The notes under the pieces: model-generated
Database searches by the model: none
Seen by the model: the letters and a program-made list of their open reading frames with translations, nothing else
Told to the model about the DNA's origin: nothing
Made by a program: the position numbers and the translations under genes
Origin: a virus
Strand: one strand, 5' to 3'
DNA length: 64,000 nt
IMG/VR virus record: IMGVR_UViG_3300010965_000002
Span: 96,001 to 160,000 of that record
In this document: in pieces, positions 1-32,591 of the stretch
How the letters are laid out: every line of letters begins with the position of its first letter
Position numbering within the stretch: the stretch's first letter is position 1

Positions 1-414
1 AACGCTACGGCGTTAGGTGCTTATGAAGCACCTGCCAGTGAGTACACCAGTTATTCACACGCTGGTCCTTACATTCAAGATGGTCTGCTGCAAGTCCACC
101 GTAGTGGTGCCTTTGTAGTTCAGTATCTTACGTATGCAAACGGCCAAACGTATTCTCGCGTGAACAGCAACGTAACAGGCAGCGGCGTTTGGACAGCCTG
201 GACATTGTTAAGCGGTGGCGTGGTTGTAGGTACTCCAGTTGGTACTCCAGTTGGTACTCCAGTTGGAACGCCCGTAGGTACTCCAGTTGGTACTCCAGTT
301 GGTACTCCAGTTGGTACTCCAGTTGGAACGCCCGTAGGTACTCCCGTAGGTACTCCAGTTGGAACGCCCGTAGGTACTCCGGTAGGTACTCCAGTTGGTA
401 GTCCAGTGGGCTAA
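1..414 (+). CDS. Tail-fibre-like protein, 5'-truncated; knob-like domain followed by C-terminal (GTPV)14-GSPV-G tail
   Basis: Frame 1 is open from base 1 (NATALGAYE...), longer than the ORF-track call at 160. GLLQV..VVQYLTY.NGQTYSRV....WTAW resembles the pyocin/phage fibre knob pattern. A fibre chaperone-like gene follows. Confidence 0.65.
   Translation, partial: NATALGAYEAPASEYTSYSHAGPYIQDGLLQVHRSGAFVVQYLTYANGQTYSRVNSNVTGSGVWTAWTLLSGGVVVGTPVGTPVGTPVGTPVGTPVGTPVGTPVGTPVGTPVGTPVGTPVGTPVGTPVGTPVGSPVG
229..408 (+). repeat. 15 tandem 12-nt units coding G-T/S-P-V
   Basis: Units are ggtactccagtt (9x), ggaacgcccgta (3x), ggtactcccgta, ggtactccggta and ggtagtccagtg. Differences are synonymous except T>S in the last unit. 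Confidence 0.97.
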
Positions 415-428
415 TTAGGACAAATGTC

Positions 429-1025
429 ATGGCATATACTTTAATAGTAGAAAAAGAAGAGGCTCGGATTGTTTTCATTCGTGATGCAACCGCGCCTCTA
501 CTGCTCGACGCTTTGTGGCCGCCTGTTGGATATAACTATCTGCACTGGCCCTTTGCGGTGTCCGACGAAGTGCTAGCCGCGCCGTGGAACTACGTGATTC
601 AAGGCAACAAAATTGTTGCCTCGACTTATACCTTTCAAAGTAACGCTATCGAAAACGCAAAACGTGGTGGATTACTTGTACAGCTTGCGCGGGCAACTAA
701 TAGACATCGTCGCATGGTCTTGAAGGAAGATATACAAGGTCAAGCCGATGTGTATCGTCTGAAAGCAGACGAGGCTACACGCTTCTTAGCAGATACTCAA
801 CAAAGTCCAAGTGCATTTCCTTGGCTGTCTGAGACTGCGGCGTTTGAAAGCCTCACCCTTGAGCAATCCGCAAATCAGATAATGTTTCGACATACGCAGC
901 AGCAAGCAATCCTGCGGCATACTGAGAATCAACGTCGGTGGTTTACACGTCGTATCCTGACAGCGGGTGTTAACGAACTTGAAACAGTAAGAACAGAGTT
1001 GACAGACTATGAACGCAGAGGTTAA
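429..1025 (+). CDS. Tail fibre assembly/chaperone-like protein
   Basis: Lies directly after the fibre gene with an RBS. GQADVYRLKADEA..FPWLSETAAFESLTLEQSANQI pattern is typical of DUF4376-like fibre-associated proteins. Confidence 0.5.
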   Translation: MAYTLIVEKEEARIVFIRDATAPLLLDALWPPVGYNYLHWPFAVSDEVLAAPWNYVIQGNKIVASTYTFQSNAIENAKRGGLLVQLARATNRHRRMVLKEDIQGQADVYRLKADEATRFLADTQQSPSAFPWLSETAAFESLTLEQSANQIMFRHTQQQAILRHTENQRRWFTRRILTAGVNELETVRTELTDYERRG

Positions 1026-1698
1026 ACCTTCATGGTGGTATGGTGATGATAGTACCAAGCAAGTGCCTGGTCAATTAGTACCTGCCGATAATCCAGTGCC
1101 GTATTGGACAAGCCAATTACTGAATGAGTCAGAAGCAGATGCCATCTACCATGCAGTGATTGCCCAATATACCCGCAAACAATTGCATCGTGTGTACAAC
1201 CCAGATGGTCAAGGCGATCAAATCAATCTTGACAGTCGATACACGCATGCCTACGACTTCTACCAAGTTCCTGGTGCTGCGGACATTGAAGCCCGCTTCA
1301 ACGCGGAGGTCGCACGCTGTGCAAGAACGTGGTGGAACAAAGAATCTGTGCCTGTGTACACGCCGCAGATTCTGGGCTATGAAGAAAAATGTCGGTTCCG
1401 CACTCATTGTGACAACAGTATTTGGAATGACCAAGGCTGGACTCAGAATGACCCGATGCGAGACGTTACGGCCTTGCTGTACGTCAGTGATTGTGTGCCA
1501 ACGGTCACCCGGCCGAACCAGCACAGCGGAGGTGAGCTAGTGTTAGATAACGTACAAACGGCAAATGGCCCAGTACGTATAGCTCCCAAAAAAGGTCAGT
1601 TTGTGATGTTCCCGTCACATCCTGTTTACCGTCACCAAGTAACGCCAGTCACTCGCGGTTATCGTATCGCGTTTGTAAACTGGTGGAGCCTAAGGTAG
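1009..1698 (+). CDS. Fe(II)/2OG oxygenase, prolyl-4-hydroxylase-like
   Basis: HxD (RTHCD), DVTALLY, SGGEL, GQFVMFPS, distal H (YRHQV) and 2OG-binding R (YRIAF..W). Confidence 0.9.
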   Translation: MNAEVKPSWWYGDDSTKQVPGQLVPADNPVPYWTSQLLNESEADAIYHAVIAQYTRKQLHRVYNPDGQGDQINLDSRYTHAYDFYQVPGAADIEARFNAEVARCARTWWNKESVPVYTPQILGYEEKCRFRTHCDNSIWNDQGWTQNDPMRDVTALLYVSDCVPTVTRPNQHSGGELVLDNVQTANGPVRIAPKKGQFVMFPSHPVYRHQVTPVTRGYRIAFVNWWSLR

Positions 1699-1704
1699 AT
1701 CGAA

Positions 1705-2409
1705 ATGCTCAAACTAAAACCGCAATGGTCTTTACGTCAACGCTCTGATGGTAGCTGGTCCCTGACTAGCGAGAATTACCATCAGGCAGTTCTCCCCGAA
1801 TATGCCGCTATTCTCCAAAAGCTAGTTCCAGGTGTTGAACCAGACACTTTGACCGACGCTGAATTCGATCAGATTGAGTACCTCACTGATCGCGGCTTCC
1901 TGAATGTTGATAACCACCCCGATGCGCCAGCTTGGGAATTGTGTGGTGCCAACTTCCATTCTGTTCAGGAACAACTCAAGCACGTTACCTTCTTCGTTGT
2001 TGACACTACGCCTAACGGTGTCGGTGCAACAATCCGTGAGACTCTCTTAACTTCTGGTCTACAGGAACAAGAGATTGACCCACGTCTGACTATCGCAGTC
2101 AGTGATTCATACCAGACGTTACCAAATGTTAAGGGTAACATGCTGCCAGTTGTTTGCAACCGTATGCGCGTGACTGTCGGCCCAATGGTGTTTCCATGGG
2201 GTACGCACGTTCGTGACAGTGTACTTGCGTCAGATCATTATCTGCCACAGCCTGGATACCAATTGCCTCATGCCTTTGACCAACTGCAACGCGGTTGGCT
2301 GGCTGTTGCCATATTGCAATTCATAGGCACCAACAAACTACGCTATGTCAATTTCTTTGTTGAATACAACATGGCACAACAGGAGTTCAAGCTATGGCCT
2401 GCGAAATAA
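1705..2409 (+). CDS. TOMM-type RiPP leader-binding (RRE) / ocin-ThiF-like protein, no YcaO domain
   Basis: N-terminal beta-rich plus winged-helix segment (LKPQW...YAAILQKL...IEYLTDRGFL), then APAWELCG, LTIAVSDSY and VTVGPMVFP, matching the order of motifs in cyclodehydratase scaffold domains. The Zn cysteines are not evident. Confidence 0.6.
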   Translation: MLKLKPQWSLRQRSDGSWSLTSENYHQAVLPEYAAILQKLVPGVEPDTLTDAEFDQIEYLTDRGFLNVDNHPDAPAWELCGANFHSVQEQLKHVTFFVVDTTPNGVGATIRETLLTSGLQEQEIDPRLTIAVSDSYQTLPNVKGNMLPVVCNRMRVTVGPMVFPWGTHVRDSVLASDHYLPQPGYQLPHAFDQLQRGWLAVAILQFIGTNKLRYVNFFVEYNMAQQEFKLWPAK

Positions 2410-2825
2410 GACAGTGCAACGCCAGTGATGAACGGCAGCTACGCAGGTGGCTGTTAGTCCATGATCCTGTGTTTGCAATGCACCGCCAACTCAAGGACTA
2501 CTTTCTGGCACCTACTGAAAGTTTCGGTGTGCTCTGTACGTTTGTAGAGAACGAAATCAAGAGCGCCTGTTTCTTTTCAACGTATTCAAACAAGTCGTTT
2601 ATCCACCTTTACATTGGTGACGTATCTGATCTTGAAGCCTTTCGTCAGTACATGAAGTTTCCATGTCAAGCATTCTTGCGTCCTGAACACGCACCGGATG
2701 CAGCATCAGGTTGGAAAAATGTGTTGGACGTAACACCAGGCTTTATGGTAGATCATCCAGCGTACAACGGTGTGTTCTCGCGTGTTGCTCCTCGTTTCGC
2801 AGGCGCTGTCTACGAACATCCTTGA
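2394..2825 (+). CDS. GNAT-fold protein (divergent)
   Basis: EIRQCNASDERQLRRW N-terminus and a beta-strand core typical of acyltransferase folds; overlaps the previous gene. Confidence 0.4.
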   Translation: MACEIRQCNASDERQLRRWLLVHDPVFAMHRQLKDYFLAPTESFGVLCTFVENEIKSACFFSTYSNKSFIHLYIGDVSDLEAFRQYMKFPCQAFLRPEHAPDAASGWKNVLDVTPGFMVDHPAYNGVFSRVAPRFAGAVYEHP

Positions 2826-2834
2826 AAGACGGTC

Positions 2835-3374
2835 ATGAGTCAAATCATAAGACGATGTACGCCTGAAGACTGGCGTTCAATGGCACGCCTGCGAATGGCG
2901 AGAAACACTCATGCAGGCAGTCGCGTATCTGAGTTCACTTCCAATCCAATCTCCAGCGTAAGCACCCGCTACCAACACGACCCACACATGGCTATGGGCT
3001 GTTGGCAAGACGGTGTGATAGCGGCATACATCTGTGCTTATGCTGGCACAGATTACTGGGTACTTGATCTGATGATTTCAAGCGGCGACCCCAAGCAACT
3101 TCAAGCCTGCTTGGAACAGTTGTTGCAAGAGTTTGAAGCCAAGGGCACGTATCAGTTCTGGTATGCCTTTCCAGAGAAGTGGGCCAGAGCGTATCGTAGC
3201 TTCTGGAAGTCAGGCGCACCCAGCTTGCGCAAGTACACAATCGAAGACGTGGCTGTGATACCAGCCCGTAAGAAAGTTGATGACCCATTTATTTGGAACA
3301 ACATTCTGCACGAATGCGTGGTTCCAGTCCCATTGTTGTTAAGGAGAAGCTATGTTGCAGAAGTGGCTAAATAA
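2835..3374 (+). CDS. GNAT-fold acyltransferase-like protein
   Basis: IRRCTPEDW...AMGCWQDGVIAAYI...WVLDLMIS pattern. Confidence 0.55.
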   Translation: MSQIIRRCTPEDWRSMARLRMARNTHAGSRVSEFTSNPISSVSTRYQHDPHMAMGCWQDGVIAAYICAYAGTDYWVLDLMISSGDPKQLQACLEQLLQEFEAKGTYQFWYAFPEKWARAYRSFWKSGAPSLRKYTIEDVAVIPARKKVDDPFIWNNILHECVVPVPLLLRRSYVAEVAK

Positions 3375-4236
3375 GTTCAAAAACCCTCATATTCAGCATA
3401 TCCATGTACCAGCTCATGTGCTCGGTTTTTTGGCCCTGACGTATGCCCTAACTGCCCTATCTTGGTGGTCAATAGGGGGTTTTGTGCTATTCAATCTGTG
3501 GTTATCCTGTTTCGGAATGAGCATTGGATTCCACCGTTATTTCAGTCACCGTGCGTTCAAGGTCAATCGGTTCTGGCATCACGTAATGCTGTGGGGCGGA
3601 ACGTTTGCTGGACAAGGCTCGGTGGTGTTCTGGGTTGCGCTGCATCGTATCCACCATCCCAACAGTGATAAATCGGTAGCCGACATCCACAGTCCAAAGT
3701 TCAAGGGGTTTTGGAACGCATACATGGGTTGGATATTCACACTAGACCCTGCGGAAGTATCACTGGCTAAATCCACTGACATCATCCGGGACAAGTGGTG
3801 CCGATGGGAACACCGTAACTACGACAAGATCATGTGGACGTATTGGACGGTCCTTGTTGGTACGGCAATCGCAGTGCCCACATTACGACCATTCATTGCT
3901 GGTGCGTTAATAGCGGGTATGTGGAGTATTCATCAAGAGGCAATTATCAACAGCGTGTGCCACGACAGCCGATTCGGTGTGGCCCCGTATGAAGATCGTA
4001 CCCGCGATGGTAGTCGTAACGTACACAGTCTGCGCTACGTAACATGGGGTCAGAGTCTCCACAACACACATCATGCTTTTGCAGGCTCACCGAACTTCGG
4101 TACACCAGAAGCTCCTGATATTGGATACCGCATTATCCGATTGATTCAAACGGGCGAACATGCAGTGCATCAAGCTCACCAGACCCAGCAACGCACTACT
4201 GCTGAAAACGTCGTGCCGCCTTCGGTTGTTGCGTAA
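3352..4236 (+). CDS. Membrane acyl desaturase (delta-9-like) #1
   Basis: Three His boxes (HRYFSH, HRIHH, HNTHH) and hydrophobic TM segments. Confidence 0.93.
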   Translation: MLQKWLNKFKNPHIQHIHVPAHVLGFLALTYALTALSWWSIGGFVLFNLWLSCFGMSIGFHRYFSHRAFKVNRFWHHVMLWGGTFAGQGSVVFWVALHRIHHPNSDKSVADIHSPKFKGFWNAYMGWIFTLDPAEVSLAKSTDIIRDKWCRWEHRNYDKIMWTYWTVLVGTAIAVPTLRPFIAGALIAGMWSIHQEAIINSVCHDSRFGVAPYEDRTRDGSRNVHSLRYVTWGQSLHNTHHAFAGSPNFGTPEAPDIGYRIIRLIQTGEHAVHQAHQTQQRTTAENVVPPSVVA

Positions 4237-4264
4237 ACAATCACATCAAGTAAGGAAAGTCATC

Positions 4265-4465
4265 ATGACATTACGCGACATCTACAATCAGGTTGTGGCC
4301 GAAGACAATTCGCCAGCCCAATGTGAAAACCAGGCAATGGCTATTCGTCGTTATGCTGAACAAGAGTTGGGCGTGACAGACCCCGACAAGCTGCACCAGT
4401 TGTTCAACGAAACGTATGAACTGTTAAATGACGGCACGCCGTTCGACGAACAGCCTGCGGCTTAA
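4265..4465 (+). CDS. Small acidic helical protein (66 aa)
   Basis: ATG 4265 with AAGGA RBS; the ORF-track start at 4160 overlaps the desaturase. Confidence 0.7.
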   Translation: MTLRDIYNQVVAEDNSPAQCENQAMAIRRYAEQELGVTDPDKLHQLFNETYELLNDGTPFDEQPAA

Positions 4466-4489
4466 AAGCACTGCGTGCAAAGCAAGCCT

Positions 4490-5506
4490 ATGAAAACTAG
4501 GCTTGTTACTGGTAAGTGTAACGTCACACATAGTTGGCATCACATACCCAATAGTATTTATTTAGAAAGATCACCCATGGAACGCTTGTATCGTGGCTAT
4601 AACGGTGTGGCTGACGTACCCCGCACAGCAGTTGACCAAACATACGAATTTTGGTTCGATAAACCTCGTGACATCATCAGCTTAAGGGCAGCCAGCATTC
4701 GTGCTGCAAAGGAATTCGGGCAGAAGTACGCTGACAAAGAGATTGTCATTCTCTACTCAGGCGGCATGGACAGCGAATGGCTGTGTGAAGCCTTCTACTT
4801 AGCAAAGGTGCCATTTAGACCTTTGATCGTGGACTACAATAACGAGAACTCTCATGATCTGTATTGGGCTCGCCGCTACCTACGCCGTCGCGGTATTACC
4901 AACGCAATCGAATGGCAGTTCGACCTACGTAGCTGGTACTCCTCACAAGAGCAGTTTGAAATAGCTGAACGTTGCCAAATGAGTGAGCTTGCCTACAGCG
5001 GCCAGTTCCGGGCAATGTTGGAGTTTCAATCACCTGATCGCATCTTCTTGAATGGCTATGACGAGCCCGTGATTACCGCTGACGATAGTGGTGCGGAACG
5101 CACATGGAACTTGACCTACAACGAACGGCATTTCGCAATCCACAAGTTCATGGATGCCTATGGTTTTAACACACAGCCTGGTGGTTGGGTAGACGCCAAT
5201 GTGTTCGCTGCATATACGCACTGTCCTATGTGGCAGATGCTGGTTTCAAATCTTGTGCAACCTCAGGTGTGGAATTCCGAGCTAATCAAGTTCCAGATTT
5301 ATAGCCATTCCTTCCCATTCATGGAAGCGCGTACAAAGTACACGGGGTTTGAGTCCATGCTTGACGTGATCGTGCCTGCCACGAAGAAATGGCGCGAGTA
5401 CACGGACAAGACCTATGGAACGCAATGGCTGCAAGACTGGTCACGCCCCATCAAAGACGTGTGGGCTGAGTTACATGGAGACACACCATATGTACGACCT
5501 TACTAA
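4490..5506 (+). CDS. Stand-alone N-type ATP pyrophosphatase (Asn-synthetase/QueC-like adenylating enzyme) #1
   Basis: PP-loop ILYSGGMDSE and NGYDEP; no glutaminase domain. Confidence 0.75.
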   Translation: MKTRLVTGKCNVTHSWHHIPNSIYLERSPMERLYRGYNGVADVPRTAVDQTYEFWFDKPRDIISLRAASIRAAKEFGQKYADKEIVILYSGGMDSEWLCEAFYLAKVPFRPLIVDYNNENSHDLYWARRYLRRRGITNAIEWQFDLRSWYSSQEQFEIAERCQMSELAYSGQFRAMLEFQSPDRIFLNGYDEPVITADDSGAERTWNLTYNERHFAIHKFMDAYGFNTQPGGWVDANVFAAYTHCPMWQMLVSNLVQPQVWNSELIKFQIYSHSFPFMEARTKYTGFESMLDVIVPATKKWREYTDKTYGTQWLQDWSRPIKDVWAELHGDTPYVRPY

Positions 5507-6155
5507 GCTAGCAGCACTAGCGACTTTCCCTTGGGAGAGTGTGTATGAAGGATTAGCTAAGAGTCGCAAGACTATGACGACCTTCTATGGTGACGTACAC
5601 AGCACGAAGTTCACCCATACGCTTGACGCCCGCTGGAGTGACCGCGATCAATGGCGCTGGTACAACGCCTTAAAGCACGGTGTCAACGTAGCAGGCTTTA
5701 ATGTCAACGTTACTGCGTTGCCTGCTGAGTACATGCAGTTCGGCAAACACTGGTGGGCACGCTCACACGAACCAATCTGGGTGCCAACGGATAATGCCCG
5801 ACACTTTGGTGAGCTACGCCAGTGGATTAAAAACTCAGGCATATTCAAGCACACGGGTCGGCAAACATTCTTTGTACAAACAGCAGGTCAGTCAAGTCCA
5901 GAGCATGTAGACTTTGAGCCTGCTGACGTGCCAGAAAATCTGCGTGCTCCCGGTGAGTTCATCTGGCTTACACCACCAGACAGACCAAAGCATCTGAGTG
6001 TTAAAGGTGTTGCGGCTCCTTGGTGCTGCTGGTTTAACCACTTTGACCGCCACGGAACTGAGGCAGAGTCAGACACACGATGGAGCCTCCGAATTGACGG
6101 CGGCTTCACAGACGAATTCAAAGCATCCTTACCAACTTCTGAAAGTTTATCATGA
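5490..6155 (+). CDS. Fe(II)/2OG oxygenase (AspH-like cupin)
   Basis: HVD...RHG...RWSLR; ATG 5490 overlaps the upstream gene. Confidence 0.7.
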   Translation: MYDLTKLAALATFPWESVYEGLAKSRKTMTTFYGDVHSTKFTHTLDARWSDRDQWRWYNALKHGVNVAGFNVNVTALPAEYMQFGKHWWARSHEPIWVPTDNARHFGELRQWIKNSGIFKHTGRQTFFVQTAGQSSPEHVDFEPADVPENLRAPGEFIWLTPPDRPKHLSVKGVAAPWCCWFNHFDRHGTEAESDTRWSLRIDGGFTDEFKASLPTSESLS

Positions 6156-6784
6156 CATCACCCGTTTACTTCAACACTGCAAACCTTGAACTCGCCCAAA
6201 CCTTGCGCAAGCATTGGATGGCTATTCGTGACGAAGCCGAAGCCTTGTTTGCCGAAGAGGGTGAAGTGCCTAAAATCAATGCAACAATGGAAGGCCAAGA
6301 CGGTCGTTACATGGAATCTGTAGGCATTGCTAAATACACAGGCACCAATGCCAGCATCCATCTGCAAGTTGTGCCTGATCTGCTTGACCCGCCAGAAGCA
6401 CGTATCGCGTTGTCACCTGCTGGTGTGGCTGGCCGTTTGCGCCGCCAGAAGAAGTGCCCAATGACCATGGGCATTCTTGCGCCTTATGGTGAACACGTTG
6501 GCAACATTGGATTCAACCGCTTACATCCAGGTGCCAAGATCAACCCGCACTATGGTGTCATCACCTCTAATCGTTTTGTGCGTATCCATTTAGGCTTGCG
6601 TACTGACCCTGGTGCTACGTTCTTTGCCAAAGACAACGATAGCTACACCTGGAAAGACGGTGAGACAATGGCCTTTGACGATGCAACCGTGTTGCACTGG
6701 GTCGAACACAAAGGTCAAAGCTCACGTTTGATTCTGTGTTTGGACATTGCCAAGGCTGCGTTTCCTGATCTGCAGGCACTGTAA
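6152..6784 (+). CDS. Aspartyl/asparaginyl beta-hydroxylase family oxygenase
   Basis: RLHPGAKINPHYG..RIHLGL..W..GETMAFDD..LHWVEH..RLILCLD canonical AspH pattern. Confidence 0.92.
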   Translation: MTSPVYFNTANLELAQTLRKHWMAIRDEAEALFAEEGEVPKINATMEGQDGRYMESVGIAKYTGTNASIHLQVVPDLLDPPEARIALSPAGVAGRLRRQKKCPMTMGILAPYGEHVGNIGFNRLHPGAKINPHYGVITSNRFVRIHLGLRTDPGATFFAKDNDSYTWKDGETMAFDDATVLHWVEHKGQSSRLILCLDIAKAAFPDLQAL

Positions 6785-6808
6785 AGCCCAGCTAGATAGG
6801 CTGGCTAA

Positions 6809-6817
6809 CTGTAAATA
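6809..6817 (+). promoter_or_regulatory. CTGTAAATA candidate phage promoter inside the enzyme cluster
   Basis: Sits in the 71-nt intergenic gap (the largest in the cluster), 39 nt before the SDR start; the same motif recurs in other intergenic gaps. Confidence 0.55.
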
Positions 6818-6855
6818 CCTATAGTAGTCAGTCTATTTAATTTTTAGAGGTTCGT

Positions 6856-7458
6856 ATGAAAAGAGCTTTGTTGGTCAGCTTAGACAGTGATCTAGGCAAG
6901 CACATGAAACGTGTGCTGGAGGAGGAGGGTTACGAAGTAACTGCTACTTCCAGACATGGTTTGCCGGATACCCTTCATTTTGATTTAGGCGTAACCGACG
7001 TACCTAAGTTTGAAGCTGCCTCGTTTGATGTATTGATCTACAACCTTGGTGTCAGCCAAGTTAACAGATCGCGTGTCGAGGTGATACGCACAAACGCGAT
7101 ACTGGCCTGTGATGCACTTCAAGCCTTGGCCCCTACGCTGAAAGCGGCAGGTCATGTCATTGTGTTTTCCAGTGGTTGGGGCAGCATACGTCAAACTGTG
7201 CGTTCAGGCGAAGCCACAGAAATCACGTACCGTATGAGTAAGGCCGCTTTGAACATGGGTGTCGCTGTATTGTCTAATGCGTTCACTAAACTGAATTGGA
7301 TTTTGATGCAGCCCGGGTTCATCACGACCAAGATGAATACCAATCCTAAGAACTTGCCATCGGCTGACCCGTATGCTGCGATGCAGGGTGTGCTCAAACA
7401 TTCACTGGCTTGCAAAGAGAGGTACGCATACATTGACTACATGGGCAATGCTCAATGA
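6856..7458 (+). CDS. Short-chain dehydrogenase/reductase (CsgA-like) #1
   Basis: YRMSKAALNM catalytic YxxxK, FSSGWGSI, QPGFITTKM; degenerate Gly-rich loop. Confidence 0.85.
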   Translation: MKRALLVSLDSDLGKHMKRVLEEEGYEVTATSRHGLPDTLHFDLGVTDVPKFEAASFDVLIYNLGVSQVNRSRVEVIRTNAILACDALQALAPTLKAAGHVIVFSSGWGSIRQTVRSGEATEITYRMSKAALNMGVAVLSNAFTKLNWILMQPGFITTKMNTNPKNLPSADPYAAMQGVLKHSLACKERYAYIDYMGNAQ

Positions 7459-8009
7459 TTACCGACAAGCTCACGCCTGTTAGTGGCACGGTATCAATCG
7501 AAGCCTACATAAAGACACGCTTTATGCTAGAGCTACAGAACCTTTGGATACTGACGTGCATTGACGAATCCCGGTTTACCGTGTTACGTGCCCAGCCATT
7601 CAGAGCCAATGAGCCGAAAAGAAAAGGCATAGAGCAGTTCTGGACTGTGTTGCACCATGCAAGAACAGTGCTAAAGCTATTCGACGTTGAGGTCAATGAT
7701 CTGAAACAGTATGCGAACAGGCCTAAGTTGTATTTAGAAGTGCTGTACACAAAAGTCGAAGGTATAAAGGAAGAGACGATTGCAGCCTACCTGTATAAAG
7801 AAAAATTCATGTTGACGGATACTTCGTTGCATGAGTCTAGTACCTTACGGAAAGGGCGTGTCGTCGATTTACTTCTCTGGTTCTCCTTTCCAAGTCTGAG
7901 TTTTCACAAAGGGTTTGTGTATGAAACGTTGAAGACTGCAGGCGTCGATGTTGGTAAAGCTGACATACTGAGACCTCTACAACCGCCAATTATTCAAGTA
8001 AATATCTAA
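7455..8009 (+). CDS. Hypothetical protein
   Basis: ATGA-coupled ORF within the operon; no recognisable motif. Confidence 0.6.
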   Translation: MITDKLTPVSGTVSIEAYIKTRFMLELQNLWILTCIDESRFTVLRAQPFRANEPKRKGIEQFWTVLHHARTVLKLFDVEVNDLKQYANRPKLYLEVLYTKVEGIKEETIAAYLYKEKFMLTDTSLHESSTLRKGRVVDLLLWFSFPSLSFHKGFVYETLKTAGVDVGKADILRPLQPPIIQVNI

Positions 8010-8020
8010 GGAGTCCTATC

Positions 8021-8824
8021 GTGGTAGCAATGTTAAAGAGTTTGCATTTTTGGCGTGTTTGGCTTGTGCCTCATGTCTTGTTGGTCGCTGGGCTGGCGCT
8101 GTATGGCGGTGACTGGCGTACACTGTTAACGGGCTTTGTGTTCTACACATTGATATCAGGCCTTGGTGTAGCCGTTGGTTTTCACCGCTTCTTCTCTCAC
8201 AAAGCATTCAAGACAAATCGGTTTTGGGAACAGATGATGCTTTACTGGGGTTCAATGGCTTGCCACGGACACCCATTGTTCTGGGTTGCTCTGCATCGTG
8301 GTCTGCACCATCGTTTCTCTGATACAGACCGTGACCCTCACAGTCCAGTTGCTCATTCACTGTGGACATCGTATCAAGGTTATGCGTTTGACCCTAAGTT
8401 GATTGAACAAGTACCCTTACGTGCTGGCACTGATTTCCTACGACACCCTGATTGGCAGTGGACGGTCAAACACTATCACAAAGTGCTGTGGCTTTCTTGG
8501 GTTGTAGTTGCCGTTGTATCTTGGGTGTTGAATGCACCTTGGTTGATGATTGGTCTTGCTGGTGCTCAAACATGGGCTATTCACCAAGAGGCATTGGTTA
8601 ACGTTGTTGGTCACGTAAGTGGTTTTGGTGCCTATCGTAACTACGATGTTGACGACAAAAGTGTCAATCGTAATCTGCTTGGCTTGTTCACTTGGGGCCA
8701 GGCGCTGCACAACAACCATCACGGTGATGCTGGTAATCCTAGCTTTGCCAACTCCGCCAAGTTTCCTCAACGCTTTGAGTTTGACCCAAGCATGTTGTGG
8801 ATTTGGACAATCCAGTCTCGTTGA
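8021..8824 (+). CDS. Membrane acyl desaturase (delta-9-like) #2
   Basis: His boxes HRFFSH, HRGLHH, HNNHH; DTDRDPHSP; AAGGAG RBS. Confidence 0.93.
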   Translation: MVAMLKSLHFWRVWLVPHVLLVAGLALYGGDWRTLLTGFVFYTLISGLGVAVGFHRFFSHKAFKTNRFWEQMMLYWGSMACHGHPLFWVALHRGLHHRFSDTDRDPHSPVAHSLWTSYQGYAFDPKLIEQVPLRAGTDFLRHPDWQWTVKHYHKVLWLSWVVVAVVSWVLNAPWLMIGLAGAQTWAIHQEALVNVVGHVSGFGAYRNYDVDDKSVNRNLLGLFTWGQALHNNHHGDAGNPSFANSAKFPQRFEFDPSMLWIWTIQSR

Positions 8825-17457: not shown

Positions 17458-17514
17458 GCAGATGGGGTCAGCGAATTTTTGCTTAACGGTGGACTTGTTA
17501 TAAAAGGACTCTCA

Positions 17515-18366
17515 ATGGTTAGCTTCGGACAAAGAGCCTTACACTCGTGGGTCGATGTTGTAAATAAACGTACTGGTGGTAGACAACCAAAACTTGCGAC
17601 GCCTAATGAGACAGTAGCGGGCATAGTTGCTCACCAAAGCGTGCGCAGGTTTGAAAAGCGCACGGTTAGCAGGGAACTGCTTGAGCTACTGGTGTTGGCT
17701 GCACAGTCTGCTCCTACGAGTGCTAACCTACAGTGTTGGAGTGTTGTGGTTGTGACCGACCCTAAGCTCAAAGCTAAATTTCTGGTAGCAGGCAACAACA
17801 ACACGACCATAGAGCAAGCGCCTTGTTATATGGTCTGGTTAGCAGACTTGACCCACGTAGCCACCATTTTAGGTGATGACGTAGAGGGCTTAGATCATTT
17901 AGAAACGTTCTTGGTGAGCAGCATAGACGCGGCCCTAGCGGCCCAGTCGTTTTCCATAGCGGCACAGTCTATGGGCTTAGGCACCGTGTTTCATGGTTCT
18001 ATACGGTACAAACCTGAAATTGCTATAGAAGCCTTGTCCTTGCCTAAGCACACGTTTCCAGTATTCGCTATGGCAGTAGGTTGGCCTAGTAAAGAGCTTG
18101 TGGTGCATTGGAATCACCCGGATGAAATAAAACCGCGTATGCCTCAGCATATGGTTCTGCACTATAACAAGTATGAGCCTAGAAAGTTGAGTCAGTTGTT
18201 AGATTATGACAAGGTAGTTGACGACTTCCACAGGGACAATGTAATCTCGCCTGAAATCTATCCAGCATTAAAGCCGTGGAGGTCCAGTGCCGTAGAACGT
18301 TTCACTTTGATGTTGAACAGAAAACTTGAGGCTATGATTAAGACCATGGGCTTTGGAACACTTTGA
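17515..18366 (+). CDS. FMN-dependent nitroreductase (NfsA/Frp-like)
   Basis: HQSVRRF, AQSAPTSANLQCWSVVVV, SIDAALAAQ, GLGTVFHGSIR, KPRMP. Confidence 0.92.
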   Translation: MVSFGQRALHSWVDVVNKRTGGRQPKLATPNETVAGIVAHQSVRRFEKRTVSRELLELLVLAAQSAPTSANLQCWSVVVVTDPKLKAKFLVAGNNNTTIEQAPCYMVWLADLTHVATILGDDVEGLDHLETFLVSSIDAALAAQSFSIAAQSMGLGTVFHGSIRYKPEIAIEALSLPKHTFPVFAMAVGWPSKELVVHWNHPDEIKPRMPQHMVLHYNKYEPRKLSQLLDYDKVVDDFHRDNVISPEIYPALKPWRSSAVERFTLMLNRKLEAMIKTMGFGTL

Positions 18367-18824: not shown

Positions 18825-19646
18825 ATGATGGACATCAATGAATTCAAAGACCGTTATGAACGGGACGGGGCCGTTTGGCCCATTAGCATTTTCTCTGCCG
18901 AAGAAATTGCTGGATACAAGCTCAAGCTCGATCAGGCGGTGGCCGACCTCGATTTGATGAACAGCGACTACCGTTGCAAGTCTCAGGTGTTGTTTCCGTG
19001 GGTGGCAGAGATTGCCAAGTCACCTAAGCTGACGCCATATCTGACGGCCTTGCTCGGTGACAGCTACCATTGCTGGGATACGTTGTTCTGGATTAAGCAA
19101 CCGGGCGATAACAAGCGCGTGAGCTTTCACCAAGACGGTACGTACTGGAACTTTGAACCTGAAAAAGGTCTGACCGTGTGGCTTTCGTTTGACGGTTCAA
19201 CCGCAGACAAGGGTGCTATTCAGTACGTCACTCAGCCTTACGTAAAGACCATTCGCAAGCATACTGACCGCAAAAGCAATGACAACCTGTTGATGCGTGG
19301 TCAGACACTCGACCGCAATCAGGAAGAAGTTGAGCACACCTGTATTGCCGAAGTGCCTGCTGGAAGCATCGCCATGCACAGTCCTTTCATCATGCACGGC
19401 TCTGTGCCAAACATGACAGATAACACACGGGCTGCGTGTGGCTTCTTGTTTGTCAAAGGTGATGCCAAGCCGCGTGAAGCGTATTCACCTGAGTCTACGC
19501 TGTGGATACACGGTGATGTACCTCCACATTTCATGCTGGACCCAGCACCAACTGGCGATTGGGAACTCGACAAGAGTGCGTGGCAAGCGGCCTATGATCG
19601 ACAACACGCAAACTACTACAAAATGAGGGAAGTAAATGCTGAATAA
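18825..19646 (+). CDS. Phytanoyl-CoA dioxygenase (PhyH) family oxygenase
   Basis: YERDG, FWIKQPG..SFHQDGTYW, LTVW, HSP..MHGS.PN, RAA. Confidence 0.93.
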   Translation: MMDINEFKDRYERDGAVWPISIFSAEEIAGYKLKLDQAVADLDLMNSDYRCKSQVLFPWVAEIAKSPKLTPYLTALLGDSYHCWDTLFWIKQPGDNKRVSFHQDGTYWNFEPEKGLTVWLSFDGSTADKGAIQYVTQPYVKTIRKHTDRKSNDNLLMRGQTLDRNQEEVEHTCIAEVPAGSIAMHSPFIMHGSVPNMTDNTRAACGFLFVKGDAKPREAYSPESTLWIHGDVPPHFMLDPAPTGDWELDKSAWQAAYDRQHANYYKMREVNAE

Positions 19647-20181
19647 ACTACACGCCTTCGTCTTTGGCGACTGGCGCGATAAGTCCACAGCGGTTGCAGG
19701 TACATTCGATGCTCCAGGTGTGTACGTGATGGCTGCCCGAGCACATGGCTTAAAAGGCTTGCTTGGTGGTCGTCACAGCTACATCGTTCACGTAAGCGGT
19801 GGGGGTGAACACACGGTGTTTGAAATAACCGACCGTGAGACATTGGGTTATCAAGGCGCTACAGAGTTCAAGAGCTACAAAACCAATCCAGGGTTCGACG
19901 AACCTGTGCTGTACCGTGTGCTGCGTAATGGCTATCAGGAATGGTTCGGTGCGCAGCCTTATGTTGTGTACCACACGCAAGTATGGCCTGAGCTTGTAGA
20001 CTTGGACGCGCTGTTTGAACTGTACCCGCACAAGAACGATCAGTTCAAGTTGTTCTACCTGAATTGCAACACGTTTGTTTCTTGGGGTGTCTATCTGGCA
20101 CGCATGATGGGGATTGACGCTTGCTTCCCTAAGACGTTTGGCACCAAGTCCGATGCTTATTGGGAGAAGTTCTATGTATGA
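19636..20181 (+). CDS. Permuted papain-like (PPPDE/DUF3750-like) protein
   Basis: HSYIV followed by Y....Y..F..NCNTFV gives a His...Cys dyad order. Confidence 0.55.
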   Translation: MLNKLHAFVFGDWRDKSTAVAGTFDAPGVYVMAARAHGLKGLLGGRHSYIVHVSGGGEHTVFEITDRETLGYQGATEFKSYKTNPGFDEPVLYRVLRNGYQEWFGAQPYVVYHTQVWPELVDLDALFELYPHKNDQFKLFYLNCNTFVSWGVYLARMMGIDACFPKTFGTKSDAYWEKFYV

Positions 20182-20572: not shown

Positions 20573-21804
20573 ACACGCTAGCGCATCGCATAAAAGAGTT
20601 GCTACCTCAAGGGTTTGCAACAATGTCAACCATTGATGCTGTGTCTGCGTCTAATGCCTTCATCTATGACAGTGAAGGCCGTCGGTACATCGACTTTGCA
20701 AGCTCCTCTTCGGCTATGAATCTGGGTCACCGTCATCCAGAAGTTGTCGAGGCCATGCAAGACCAGTTGGACAAATTTGTTCACACCTTCTTTCAGCAAG
20801 TGCCGTACAGCAGCTATCTGGATTTGGTTGAGGTGCTGCATCGTATTACACCTGGCGAGTTCCGCAAGAAGACAGTGCTGAATTCCACAGGCTGTGAAGC
20901 CGTTGAAACGGCTGTGCGTATTGCCAAGGCACATACCAAACGGCAGACCGTGTTGTGCTTCACAGGTTCGTTTCACGGTCGTAGCTTGCTAGGTTCTGCG
21001 CTGTCAAACAATGCAGGTACAGCCCTACACGATCTGAACAACATCGTGTGCGCCCCATTCGTGTCAATGGATGACGAGCCTTTCGATGCAATCGCGTATG
21101 CAAAGCAGTTGGCGAACCTAGTGCCGCTGGACAAGATAGCTGCGATCATCATTGAACCCGTGCAAGGCGAATCTGGTTTCAACGTGGTGCAGAAACCCTT
21201 CTTGGATTGGCTGCGTTGCCTTGCCACAAACAACGGTACAGTCCTAATCGTTGATGAAGTGCAATCAGGATTGGCGCGTACAGGTACCATGTTTGCCTTA
21301 GATCAGTATTACGTGGAGCCTGACATCATCTTGGTGTCGAAGACATTGGGTGGCGGCTTGCCGTTGTCAGCCGTTGTAGGCCGCGCAGAAATTATGGATG
21401 CGCCCACTACGTTTGGCGGTACATTCAGCGGTACACCTTTGGCAGTTGCGGCGGCATTACGCGTTATTGAGGTCATCGAGACTCAGCAAGTGTGCCGTAC
21501 CTCACAGACGTTGGGTGTACTGTGCATGAGCAGACTGCAGGACTTCGCCAAGTACCCTTTCGTCAAAAAGATGCGCGGCTTAGGCTCAATGCTGTCGTTG
21601 GAAATCGACGTGGAGAATTATCCTCAGTTGACGACCACCATACAACGTCGGGCACGCGACAACGGCTTGCTGTTGCTGAGTGCAGGTATCAACAAGTCGC
21701 GCATTCGGTTCCTGTATCCGCTGACGATTGAAAAATCGGTGCTAGACGAAGGACTGACCATACTCGACAACGTATTCAAGGAACTTGCGAATGAACTACG
21801 GTAA
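20569..21804 (+). CDS. Class III PLP aminotransferase (GabT/4-aminobutyrate aminotransferase-like)
   Basis: YIDFAS, STGCEAVETAV, FTGSFHGRS, IIEPVQGESG, DEVQSGLARTG, SKTLGGGLP. Confidence 0.93.
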   Translation: MNTLAHRIKELLPQGFATMSTIDAVSASNAFIYDSEGRRYIDFASSSSAMNLGHRHPEVVEAMQDQLDKFVHTFFQQVPYSSYLDLVEVLHRITPGEFRKKTVLNSTGCEAVETAVRIAKAHTKRQTVLCFTGSFHGRSLLGSALSNNAGTALHDLNNIVCAPFVSMDDEPFDAIAYAKQLANLVPLDKIAAIIIEPVQGESGFNVVQKPFLDWLRCLATNNGTVLIVDEVQSGLARTGTMFALDQYYVEPDIILVSKTLGGGLPLSAVVGRAEIMDAPTTFGGTFSGTPLAVAAALRVIEVIETQQVCRTSQTLGVLCMSRLQDFAKYPFVKKMRGLGSMLSLEIDVENYPQLTTTIQRRARDNGLLLLSAGINKSRIRFLYPLTIEKSVLDEGLTILDNVFKELANELR

Positions 21805-22801
21805 GTATAGCCTTGACGACCACTACCGTTGGGGCTTTGGTGATTCTTGGTTCAACATGCCAGAGAATCCACGGGATTGCTTTCGAGTGTCTCTGGGTTC
21901 GTGCAAACGTGGACCTCTGTCGCTGCGTGAAGAATGCGTTATTGCTGCAAAGCAGTTGTCTGAAACGATTACCAAGCCTCTGTTGGTGGGACTATCCGGT
22001 GGCTTTGACAGTCAGGTGGTGTGTCTCTCTTTCATGGCGGCTGGCGTACCGTTCACACCTGTGGTGCTGCGCTTAACCAGCGATAGCGGGGCGTTTTACA
22101 ACCAGACTGACTACGCTAACGCCATGAAGTTCTGTAGCCTCAAAGGCATTGTGCCTTTGGTGGAGACACTGAACCTGGACGAGTTCTATCGTGGTGAAGG
22201 TCTGCGGCTCATTCAGGACAACTGCATCACGGTGGCTGAGATAGCTGTGCAACTGCACTTGGTAATCAAGTACAAGGACACTCATGCGTATGTCAACGGA
22301 GGCGGTGACCCTACGCTCTCGTTCATGAATGGCAAGCTGGTGTACTCGCTTATGCCTACTCCGATTCAACAGTACATGATTAACAACGGCATCGAAGGAT
22401 GTCTCAAGTTTTTCATGTATTCGCCTGAACAGATAGCGGCGTATCTGCAACATCCTGTGATGCAGATGTACAACGCGGGCTGCGAGACACTACACGACGG
22501 CTACAAAGGTCCAAACATCTTTACGTTCGTGGTCAAGCCCATGATGTACTTGAACCAGTGGCCGGAGTTGGTGCAGCGAAAGAAACAGACAGGCTTTGAG
22601 CAAGTTCCCTACTTTGCAAAAATGCGGGAGCTTACATTTAGCTTGAACGAGCACATAAATCCAAGGGCGAAGAAGATCACTTGGACCTATGAGCAATTAG
22701 TTGACCACCTAATGAATGGTCAAGGCGCGATTAAAACATGGAGAAGTGTTGATGAACACGATACATCTGGACCCTACCCTAGCGTATTCACAAGCGTTTA
22801 A
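21785..22801 (+). CDS. Stand-alone N-type ATP pyrophosphatase #2
   Basis: VGLSGGFDSQ PP-loop and NGGGDP; paralog of 4490. Confidence 0.75.
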   Translation: MRMNYGKYSLDDHYRWGFGDSWFNMPENPRDCFRVSLGSCKRGPLSLREECVIAAKQLSETITKPLLVGLSGGFDSQVVCLSFMAAGVPFTPVVLRLTSDSGAFYNQTDYANAMKFCSLKGIVPLVETLNLDEFYRGEGLRLIQDNCITVAEIAVQLHLVIKYKDTHAYVNGGGDPTLSFMNGKLVYSLMPTPIQQYMINNGIEGCLKFFMYSPEQIAAYLQHPVMQMYNAGCETLHDGYKGPNIFTFVVKPMMYLNQWPELVQRKKQTGFEQVPYFAKMRELTFSLNEHINPRAKKITWTYEQLVDHLMNGQGAIKTWRSVDEHDTSGPYPSVFTSV

Positions 22802-30848: not shown

Positions 30849-32591
30849 CTACGCCTGCAACTTAGCTAAGAAGCTAGGTGGCCGAACACCTATGTCTTTG
30901 AACTTGTCATAGAATTCAACCATGACGCTCGGGTCAACATAATTCTTTGCCGCTGTGCTCCACACAGTAGTCTGGGCAACACCTATACCCTTAACGTGAC
31001 CAAGAATACGACCAACATTTGTCAGTGCAGCCTTGAACGCTTCGTCAACCATCTTCTGATTGAGACCTCGACGCGCTGCAAGTTTCTCAGCAGCTAAGTC
31101 CAATTCGGTACGGGCCAAACGTGTACCACGCAGATGCCGCAACTTGTGAGGACTGGCTTCGGGCACACCACTTACTTGACGGAAATACAGGCGCAGCTTG
31201 TTCGCATTGAACACAGTACCATCAAACTCCCACAGCAAGTCTTTGCGTTGTTTACCTTCGCACAGTGTGTCCAACAGTGCAATCACCTGACGCATGTGAA
31301 CCGTCTCAGGCTTCAACGTATGCTTTTGTTGCGCACTGTCTTTGCCAACGTAGTCAAGGATGATTGTGTTGCCTCGACGCTTCACGTTACCAACCAGCAA
31401 CGTTGTCAAACCAAAGGTCGCACCGTTTTTATTGGCGTTGTCCTTACCACCGACTCGCGCACAGGTTTCGTACACCAACTCACACTGCGCTGCAAGCACC
31501 TTGGTGTTGAAGTCTTTGCCAGCAAGATCACGACGCCAGGCTTTCACCATGCGTGCTTCCTTGGCAATCAGCTTGTCAACCAGGCCAAACTTGTGGGCTC
31601 GATTCAGCAGCAGCTTTGTGCCCGTGTAGAAATACTGTTCGTTGTTCTTGCCAGCAGCGTCTTTGGTAGGCAACACAGCTTTGAACACCCAGTTGCCGTT
31701 GCGTCCAGGGATAGCATCTTTCTTTGGGTCGTAAGCTGGATTCATGACGATCTTCGACGCTGGGTCGAGATTATTAACGTCACCGCCAGTGCCAGTCTTC
31801 AAAGCCTCACCATCGCTGGTCATCAAGGCTCCGTCTTCACCGACTTTACCGTTGAAGCCTTTTGGCAAGCGGTGAGGGATGCCACGACCATCAAGGTGCT
31901 TGCGTGCGTCAGCTATGTCCACAGCGCCGCCTTGGTCACGCACGAATTCACGAAGCTCTTGCTTGTAAACAACAGTGAGGGCCCGACGCACGCTCAGATA
32001 TTCACTCCACAGTTCTGGGTTATCAGCACGTATTTGAACTTGCTGCTCCAGAGGAATGTTCAATGCTGATTGACCTGTCAGCTTCTTGACCACACGTTTG
32101 AGTTCGTCAACCAGAGGTGCTACGTCTTGAGCCTCAGTCTTGAACTGATTGAGCAAGATGGGCGGCAAATCAAGTTTACCAAGCGAGGACCGGATTGTTT
32201 CCAGAGTAGCAGGGTTCTCGCTCTTGTGCCACAGTCGTGCCTTGTTGATGATAGCCAATTCAAGATCGCTAACCTCTTGGTTTTTCTTGATGGATGGCAA
32301 CGCCACCCGCAAGTCGTTCAAGTGATTGAGCAGAATCTCTGCAAGGACGTCAGCATCGTCAGGCGGTGTAGCTGTAATCCATTCCGTGTAAGAACGGTAG
32401 GGCTTGATTGGAATACGGTGACGACGGCAGAAGGCTTCACCTTCTGGAACAGCTTTGCGCCATTCAGTCATCAACGTCTTTGGCAAGCATTCCTTCGTGG
32501 CACCAGCCCCAACACGAAGCCAGTACACCATGCTGGAAAGCAGAACAAATAAGTAGGAAGAGCTTGGAGTATTGGAGGCTAGTACGCGCAT
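30849..32591 (-). CDS. DNA topoisomerase IB (bacterial/viral type) with long N-terminal extension
   Basis: Catalytic pentad in order: ARVG, YVGK, HKLRH, LGHV, KNY(V)DP; also TFGLTTL. Confidence 0.85.
   Translation of the reverse strand: MRVLASNTPSSSYLFVLLSSMVYWLRVGAGATKECLPKTLMTEWRKAVPEGEAFCRRHRIPIKPYRSYTEWITATPPDDADVLAEILLNHLNDLRVALPSIKKNQEVSDLELAIINKARLWHKSENPATLETIRSSLGKLDLPPILLNQFKTEAQDVAPLVDELKRVVKKLTGQSALNIPLEQQVQIRADNPELWSEYLSVRRALTVVYKQELREFVRDQGGAVDIADARKHLDGRGIPHRLPKGFNGKVGEDGALMTSDGEALKTGTGGDVNNLDPASKIVMNPAYDPKKDAIPGRNGNWVFKAVLPTKDAAGKNNEQYFYTGTKLLLNRAHKFGLVDKLIAKEARMVKAWRRDLAGKDFNTKVLAAQCELVYETCARVGGKDNANKNGATFGLTTLLVGNVKRRGNTIILDYVGKDSAQQKHTLKPETVHMRQVIALLDTLCEGKQRKDLLWEFDGTVFNANKLRLYFRQVSGVPEASPHKLRHLRGTRLARTELDLAAEKLAARRGLNQKMVDEAFKAALTNVGRILGHVKGIGVAQTTVWSTAAKNYVDPSVMVEFYDKFKDIGVRPPSFLAKLQA

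Follow-up and report, generated by a model that had tools for sequence, protein, structure and literature searches.

A predicted RRE/E1-like protein, probably non-catalytic, encoded without a detected YcaO partner in the tailoring-enzyme island of a large phage

Introduction

The locus described here raises the question of what a substrate-binding scaffold of the kind known from YcaO cyclodehydratases is doing in a phage in which YcaO is not found. The locus lies in a 64,000-nt stretch of viral DNA (positions 96,001 to 160,000 of the IMG/VR virus record IMGVR_UViG_3300010965_000002), which is called the window below and provides the coordinates unless genome positions are stated. The protein in question, P0001, is encoded at 1705–2409. 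An earlier note, made from the letters of the window, had taken it for a scaffold protein like those of thiazole/oxazole-modified microcin (TOMM) cyclodehydratases. Structural modelling indicates with high confidence that P0001 is a winged-helix recognition element of the type used by peptides that are synthesized ribosomally and modified post-translationally (RiPPs), that is, a RiPP recognition element (RRE), joined to a shortened E1/ThiF-like domain. Taken as a whole, the reading of P0001 as a stand-alone, probably non-catalytic peptide clamp that serves the conserved neighbouring enzymes is, in our judgment, somewhat likelier to be right than wrong.

In the literature consulted, non-catalytic RRE/E1-like scaffolds are described only as partners of YcaO cyclodehydratases (PMC12596934, PMC6395948). 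McbB is such a scaffold; its RRE and E1-like domain form a peptide clamp that contacts both McbC and McbD (PMC6395948). ThiF-like domains are used for peptide binding (PMC12596934, section 3.6), and MccB and PaaA are dimeric peptide clamps that act on a ribosomal peptide (PMC12596934). Phage-borne RiPP clusters are described mainly for temperate phages (10.1101/2020.10.01.322628).

Results

The P0001 gene and its family

The P0001 gene is an open reading frame (ORF) on the + strand that runs from ATG to TAA (1705–2409) and encodes 234 amino acids (aa). Its start codon lies 6 nt past the stop of a P4H-type oxygenase gene (1009–1698). The four motifs to which the earlier note had drawn attention are all present in the translation: YLTDRGFL at residues 59–66, AWELCG at 76–81, LTIAVSDSY at 128–136, and VGPMVFP at 158–164. 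A word-indexed search of 5.8 billion clusters returned 21 homologs with 51–91% identity, all of them environmental, and a profile search of 1.84 billion proteins returned 42 representatives at E ≤ 0.001. Because P0001 has these homologs and belongs to a conserved family, the gene is real and under selection, and a chance ORF is dismissed.

Nearly all full-length family members are stand-alone proteins of 217–248 aa. Some of the 42 profile matches are fragments, and three are proteins of 878–1817 aa whose matches to the P0001 profile are short and weak; no fused form is evident among the 42. In the close clade, W77, E78, L79, Q90, H93, D100, T102, N104, G107, S135, and P160 are invariant, and the AWEL, SDSY, and GP(M)xFPW motifs are kept. 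In a wide alignment of 37 members, only E23, L40, Q90, L114, G159, and P160 are conserved in at least 90% of the sequences. One family homolog outside the window, P0022 (153 aa, on a 94.6-kb contig), diverges past about residue 140 and looks like a frameshifted or truncated copy.

P0001 had no match to Pfam, NCBIfam, or PHROG, and the 37 members searched against Pfam and NCBIfam gave scattered single chance matches only. Sequence searches of the PDB with P0001 itself and with the family profiles A1 and A2 returned noise (E of at least 0.07). P0001 and a neighbouring PP-loop protein (PP-loop A, described below) had no tblastn match in 50,697 GenBank phage records. Among the viral models of BFVD, Foldseek found no analogue of P0001 above a TM score of 0.36. 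Two pattern-based scans of GTDB species genomes, both of limited reach (A1, A6), detected no relatives, scans with the single proteins P0049, P0045, and P0033 gave no match, and the sole yield of a metagenome scan for relatives was a 1.4-kb fragment.

Predicted fold of P0001

P0001 was modelled with AlphaFold2 (AF2) from a 22-sequence alignment. The model had a mean predicted local distance difference test score (pLDDT) of 82.3 and a predicted template modelling score (pTM) of 0.63, and the pLDDT fell below 50 only at residues 75–79 and 81–92. Three parts are predicted:

1705–1911, + strand: RRE-type winged helix (residues 1–69), built from four short strands plus two long helices and closing with YLTDRGFL
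1912–1980, + strand: linker and helices (residues 70–92), of low confidence, holding AWELCG and the conserved VQEQL
1981–2406, + strand: shortened E1/ThiF-like Rossmann domain (residues 93–234), without canonical ATP or zinc sites

In Foldseek searches, TruD and LynD matched the whole model at E values of 1.7e-10 to 5.5e-9, as did McbB, MccB, and PaaA at 1e-7 to 3e-5; MoeB and ThiF matched its E1-like domain at 2.5e-3 to 7.5e-3. The model superposed on LynD (4v1v_A) over 231 of its 234 residues (Z 14.2; root-mean-square deviation (rmsd) 3.1 Å; residues 1–234 on chain residues 6–306) and on TruD over 226 residues (Z 13.5). The E1-like domain of the fused YcaO peptidase 7u58 matched over 144 residues (Z 12.9, rmsd 2.8 Å), and the whole model matched MccB (Z 11.5–12.4) and PaaA (Z 11.4). 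For McbB (Z 9.4–9.9), the superposition was poorer (rmsd 5.9 Å, and 12–13 Å in a second comparison). The catalytic E1s Atg7, MoeB, ThiF, UBA3, UBA5, SAE, Cap2, and BubCD matched residues ~82–234 only (Z 8.9–10.6). Among these, residues 82–234 aligned with MoeB residues 21–239 at Z 10.5 (rmsd 3.0 Å, 140 residues aligned) and with ThiF at Z 10.3. In this model, P0001 stands closest in structure to one group in particular, the E1-like domains found with YcaO enzymes.

Residues 1–69 alone matched the RREs of TigE (Z 7.8), the lasso B1 proteins 6jx3_B and 5v1u_A (Z 6.5), ThcOx (Z 6.3), MibB (Z 6.0), and PqqD (Z 5.5). The RRE superpositions (TigE, TfuB1, TbiB1, ThcOx, MibB, PqqD) had an rmsd of 2.4–3.1 Å, and generic winged-helix proteins gave lower Z scores of 5.6–5.9. 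E23, which lies in the third strand of this domain, is nearly invariant across the wide family. The two-domain assignment is made because domains 1 and 2 of LynD and TruD were matched over the whole length of P0001 and RREs were matched by residues 1–69.

At the level of the model, these matches bear out the RRE and ocin-ThiF-like architecture that had been proposed from the sequence motifs. The TOMM cyclodehydratase-like identity proposed with it holds for the fold and fails for membership of a curated family. The TOMM docking, ThiF (PF00899), and PqqD models had no match at E ≤ 1 among the 37 family members, and PF05402 (PqqD/RRE) had none among them, in P0001 itself, or anywhere in the 176,943-bp virus record.

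Loss of the E1 catalytic elements

The ATP site of ThiF consists of a Gly-rich pocket, Arg70, Gln71, Lys83, Asp127, and Arg11 (PMC12596934). The sequence of Escherichia coli MoeB was compared, partly by eye, with the secondary structure of the P0001 model. The segment VQEQLKH of P0001, followed by strand 1 (VTFFVV), lines up with GQEALKD of MoeB, followed by RVLIVG. The position of the MoeB loop GLGGLG is occupied by TPNGVG in P0001, so that the GxGxxG loop is absent, and the distant clade has unrelated sequences at this position, e.g., HTNMYW and HSDPSW. Strand 2 of P0001 (LTIAVSD) matches LTLLDFD of MoeB. After strand 2, about 95 residues, including R73, K86, and D130, precede VPLVSG...IRMEGQITVF in MoeB, whereas about 30 residues precede LPVVCNRMRVTVGPMVF in P0001. 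Because this stretch is cut from about 95 to about 30 residues, P0001 has no counterpart of those helices and strands on which the phosphate and Mg ligands sit. The shortening agrees with the superposition, in which 140 aligned residues span 219 residues of MoeB, and the P0001 domain is about 80 residues shorter. No CxxC zinc pairs were found in the P0001 sequence.

Canonical adenylation by P0001 is, as judged from sequence and model together, very unlikely. Since both the Gly-rich loop and the segment with R73, K86, and D130 are lost, the E1-like domain is probably a non-catalytic clamp or scaffold.

Search for YcaO and other TOMM partners

The earlier note had reported no YcaO partner in the window. 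This holds, and it extends to the whole 176,943-bp virus record (72% complete by CheckV): PF02624 gave no match at E ≤ 0.01, and the same search was positive in five of 14 control genomes. PF00899 and TIGR03605 (SagB) had no match in the record either. YcaO was also absent from two records of a relative, IMGVR_UViG_3300035181_001618 (133,943 bp, 37% complete; its locus is called L001 below) and IMGVR_UViG_3300035180_001545 (105,494 bp, 29% complete). Both encode a homolog with 42% identity to P0001. Since they are identical over the compared 20.7-kb region, they count as one independent lineage, and the genomic context below comes from this one independent relative, L001. All of the genomes compared are incomplete.

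A YcaO domain takes up roughly 300 aa at the least. In the gene island around P0001, ORFs that match no family reach 246 aa at most and are thus too short for YcaO. A nitroreductase gene at 17479–18366 lies inside the island and outside its conserved core. Its product was considered as an analogue of McbC/SagB and rejected, being of the oxygen-insensitive NfsA-like type (E 8e-44), without a TIGR03605 match, and not part of the core in the relative.

Gene neighbourhood and conserved core

P0001 is encoded in an island of co-oriented, mostly abutting genes (429–23162, about 22 kb) beside virion genes. The island encodes many 2-oxoglutarate (2OG)/cupin oxygenases of the P4H, AspH/LpxO-like, TauD, and PhyH types, together with two desaturase-like proteins, short-chain dehydrogenases, a B12-radical SAM protein, GNATs, an aminotransferase, and two PP-loop proteins. 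The core common to the island and L001 comprises only 11 genes (29–62% identity), which are contiguous in L001. The core features are as follows:

1009–1698, + strand: P4H-type 2OG-Fe(II) oxygenase (PF13640, E 1.6e-15); 29% identity to the L001 homolog (L001 7683–8321)
1705–2409, + strand: P0001 (RRE-E1); 42% identity to the L001 homolog
2394–2825, + strand: GNAT-fold protein, 143 aa; 40–42% identity to the syntenic L001 homolog; no Pfam match
2835–3374, + strand: conserved protein, 179 aa; 52% identity to the syntenic L001 homolog; low-confidence ESM Atlas model with weak GNAT leads
3352–4236, + strand: Delta-9-desaturase-like di-iron protein A (PF00487, E 1.7e-10); 57% identity to the syntenic L001 homolog
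4577–5506, + strand: PP-loop protein A, 309 aa, with the motif SGGMDSEW; 53% identity to the syntenic L001 homolog
8021–8824, + strand: desaturase-like protein B (PF00487); 61.5% identity to the L001 homolog
18825–20181, + strand: PhyH-type dioxygenase (PF05721, E 3e-13) and DUF3750-like protein (PF12570, weak); 51% and 39% identity to L001
21785–23162, + strand: PP-loop protein B (21785–22801; motif SGGFDSQ, weak MnmA match) and terminal GNAT; 38% and 37–40% identity to L001

The start of the 143-aa GNAT-fold gene overlaps the stop of the P0001 gene by 16 nt. Its product has a TM score of about 0.7 to RimI-type acetyltransferases in the ESM Atlas, and the Q/RxxGxG/A motif was not seen by eye. 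Both desaturase-like proteins have the HRxxSH, HRxHH, and HNxHH boxes typical of Delta-9 desaturases (HRYFSH, HRIHH, and HNTHH in protein A). Their presence in the core suggests lipid-type chemistry or an unusual use of the fold.

The AF2 model of PP-loop A (pLDDT 92) had Z scores of 14.4 and 13.8 in its matches to the synthetase domain of asparagine synthetases, of 13.2 for beta-lactam synthetase, 11.0 for carbapenam synthetase, and 10.0 for TsnB9, and of at most 9.5 for the other PP-loop enzymes. Because the synthetase domains score clearly above the other PP-loop enzymes, PP-loop A is assigned from its model as an amide ligase of the AsnB type, which would adenylate a carboxylate and which has no glutaminase domain. 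The alignment of homologs supports an ATG start at 4577; the GTG at 4475 that had been annotated as the start is probably incorrect.

The same longest-contig figures recur in the homolog tables: 5593 and 21792 in those of RRE-E1 and PP-loop A; 64942, 11158, and 5593 in those of RRE-E1 and a 66-aa protein encoded upstream of PP-loop A; and 35027 in those of PP-loop A and the 66-aa protein. Since these figures are equal across tables, they hint that the three genes are co-located in further lineages.

Candidate substrates

The 66-aa protein and the Pro/Thr/Gly-rich tails and linkers of adjacent virion proteins are candidate substrates. Two of them are encoded close to P0001:

1–414 (genome 95905–96414; window −95 to 414), + strand: C-terminus of a virion-type protein, candidate substrate, from the translation
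4265–4465, + strand: 66-aa acidic protein, candidate substrate or adaptor, a conserved ORF

In the tail of the virion-type protein, a four-residue unit occurs 15 times in tandem, as GTPV in the first 14 copies and as GSPV in the last, and one more G follows. Tails of this type are found in three proteins (genome 83265–84158, 93855–94247, and 95905–96414) that have unrelated bodies, share the (P)PVG(T/S) repeats, and all end in PVGSPVG-stop. Every Thr or Ser in the three tails is preceded by Gly. Exactly between the P4H and RRE-E1 genes of L001 lies a gene (L001 8384–9955) for a fibre-like protein of 523 aa that has long P/T/S-rich linkers, and a collagen-like GPTG-repeat protein is encoded upstream (L001 4083–5240).

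The ATG of the 66-aa ORF is preceded, 6 nt upstream, by the Shine-Dalgarno-like sequence AAGGAAAG. The protein has 16 homologs with 72–98% identity, in which the body is strongly conserved and the D/E-rich C-terminal tail varies in length. A conserved body with a variable C-terminal tail recalls long-leader RiPP precursors. The family had no NCBIfam or PDB match, and no small precursor gene common to both lineages was found. Between the 66-aa gene and the PP-loop A gene lies a GC-rich hairpin of 9–10 bp (4481–4508); over the wider 126-nt stretch, folding is energetically no more favourable than in shuffled sequences (z −0.13).

Phage setting

The window encodes tail-protein PHROGs, a primase, and class I ribonucleotide reductase subunits, has a GC content of about 50%, and is from a large uncultivated phage. 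For a topoisomerase-like protein encoded at 30849–32591 on the − strand (phrog_23460), the closest relatives from cultured phages (25–31% identity) are encoded by jumbo phages (NCTB, Achromobacter Motura, Pseudomonas PaBG and Lu11, and Xanthomonas phages). These relatives, as far as one protein sequence indicates, place the phage near that jumbo-phage group. In a blastn search of window positions 1–8000 against GenBank phages, the sole match was at 230–396, where repeat-coding DNA is 74% identical to a hypothetical gene of a Staphylococcus phage. This match is probably a low-complexity coincidence.

Discussion

Comparison with known systems

Domains 1 and 2 of LynD and TruD (4v1t/4v1v, 4bs9) resemble P0001 in having an N-terminal RRE and an E1-like domain in the same arrangement (rmsd 3.1–3.5 Å); the E1-like domain is non-adenylating in LynD and TruD and probably so in P0001. 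However, LynD and TruD are fused to YcaO, whereas P0001 stands alone and no YcaO was found. P0001 is also smaller, with 234 residues against about 300 in LynD, and its identity to LynD and TruD is 16–18%, without detectable sequence homology. McbB and discrete TOMM C/Ocin-ThiF-like scaffolds such as TclI are non-catalytic subunits with an RRE and an E1-like domain that clamp the leader and dock more than one modifying enzyme (PMC6395948, PMC10634744). The partners of McbB are the YcaO protein McbD and the flavin mononucleotide (FMN) dehydrogenase McbC, whereas the neighbours of P0001 are 2OG oxygenases and GNAT-fold, desaturase-like, and PP-loop proteins. Unlike McbB, P0001 has no CxxC zinc pairs.

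MccB of the microcin C7 pathway and PaaA of the pantocin A pathway have the same two-domain architecture as P0001. They retain the ATP site and adenylate a carboxylate, whereas P0001 lacks the Gly-rich loop and the segment with Arg, Lys, and Asp. Lasso-peptide cyclases are homologues of AsnB. In the lasso machinery, the RRE protein B1 acts with an AsnB-like cyclase C, and the phage island likewise encodes an RRE protein with an AsnB-type ligase. In contrast to the lasso machinery, no B2 protease was recognised in the island, no lasso-type precursor is evident, and the RRE of P0001 is fused to an E1-like domain; PP-loop A (309 aa) is also without an N-terminal domain, unlike lasso cyclase C. 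A literature search for AclA (PDB 9egb) found nothing.

Proposed mechanism

By analogy with McbB, LynD, and MccB, P0001 would dimerise via its E1-like domain. The edge strand of the RRE would hold an extended recognition segment of a ribosomal peptide or protein, and P0001 would dock tailoring enzymes so that the tethered substrate could be handed between them. Since YcaO is absent, the docked enzymes would be other than a YcaO cyclodehydratase, and the clamp would serve its conserved neighbours. It has probably been reused for a different protein modification. The likeliest partners would be one or more of the GNAT-fold proteins, one or both of the AsnB-type ligases, and the oxygenase of the P4H type; naming any particular one of them as the partner is tentative. 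The earlier note had put P0001 forward as the adaptor that presents the substrate for the array, a role that is likewise putative. Accessory hydroxylases of the phage may act on the same tethered substrate. It is possible, and we would not call it probable, that an RRE/E1-like clamp of the TOMM type has parted from YcaO in this large-phage lineage and that it guides the modification, leader-directed and in RiPP style, of either the virion proteins with PVG(T/S) tails or the 66-aa protein via AsnB-type ligases, GNAT-fold proteins, and Fe(II) oxygenases.

Alternative explanations

The fold may have been kept for a role other than peptide presentation. P0001 would then be a dimeric structural protein, a regulator with a DNA- or RNA-binding winged helix, or an assembly factor, or it would scaffold a complex of lipid-modifying enzymes. 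This explanation is favoured by the two Delta-9-desaturase-like proteins and the PhyH dioxygenase of the core, by the LpxO/OlsC-like hydroxylases of the island, by the lower-scoring generic winged-helix matches to residues 1–69, and by the lack of a conserved small precursor gene in both lineages. However, the top matches to residues 1–69 are all bona fide RREs, the two-domain unit superposes on LynD, and P/T/S/G-rich virion proteins adjoin the P0001 gene in both lineages. To our knowledge, all described proteins that join an RRE to an E1-like domain act on peptides. We regard a role outside peptide presentation as unlikely.

Less likely still is that P0001 is a classical TOMM C-protein, with a YcaO that comes from a gene in the 28% of the genome that is missing or from the host, and with the G-T and G-S units of the tails converted to (methyl)oxazolines, or the substrate to thioamides or amidines. 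The nearest folds, LynD, TruD, and 7u58, are indeed YcaO-fused E1-like domains, and the record is 72% complete. In addition, Gly precedes every Thr and Ser in the three tails, which is a context favourable for azoline formation. Against this stand the absence of PF02624 from the 177-kb, 134-kb, and 105-kb records despite the five positive control genomes, the small size (≤246 aa) of the island's ORFs without a family match, and the lack of a SagB-type dehydrogenase in the record and of fused forms among the 42 profile matches. The C and D genes of TOMM clusters are normally adjacent or fused. About half of them are fused (PMC6395948).

The remaining alternative, an active E1-like enzyme of the MccB/PaaA type that nucleotidylates a carboxylate, e.g., the C-terminal Gly of the PVGSPVG-stop proteins, for amidation or cross-linking, is highly improbable: MccB and PaaA, in which an RRE is joined to an active E1, match the fold strongly (Z 12.4 and 11.4), a terminal Gly is common to the three tails and to ubiquitin-like substrates, and polar residues are invariant at the former nucleotide pocket of the close clade (listed below), but these residues are lost in the distant clade, the Gly-rich loop and the Arg, Gln, Lys, and Asp ligands of phosphate and Mg are missing, the domain is about 80 residues shorter than that of MoeB, PF00899 matches none of the 37 members, and the core already holds two canonical PP-loop adenylating enzymes.

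Several points weigh against the peptide-clamp reading of P0001. The structural assignment depends on a single AF2 model with a low-confidence linker and a pTM of 0.63, because P0001 has no sequence-level link to any RRE, ThiF, or TOMM family. The hhalign comparison of the family profile A2 with E. coli MoeB gave only a 37-column C-terminal helix-hairpin with a probability of 2.6%; its register is right and it is compatible with the fold, but it is not evidence for it. A polar cluster (D100, T102, N104, G107, D134, S135) is kept without variation at the former nucleotide site of the close clade. Since this cluster is invariant, the old site may bind a ligand or retain some catalysis in that clade. 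The desaturase-like, LpxO/OlsC-like, and PhyH neighbours could equally mean lipid chemistry rather than peptide chemistry. As for the substrates, a search of the relative's records for a PVGTPVG-coding pattern was negative, and no homolog of the 66-aa protein was found in L001 or its contigs. Finally, the incompleteness of the virus record by CheckV bears on the absence of YcaO.

Significance

What is new here is a probable RRE/E1-like clamp that is minimal, is carried by a phage without a detected YcaO, and stands among enzymes of another kind. Annotation by Pfam, NCBIfam, or PHROGs will probably miss this family because it is invisible to their models. If the peptide-clamp reading of P0001 is true, the RRE/E1-like clamp would be a portable substrate-recruiting module that can be used for other chemistry. 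The material bound by the clamp would provide a handle on the substrate of a 22-kb island of tailoring enzymes beside virion genes. If the substrate is a virion protein, the island would represent post-translational tailoring of the virion guided by a recognition element, and phages would decorate their particles by RiPP logic, which would bear on host recognition and defence evasion.

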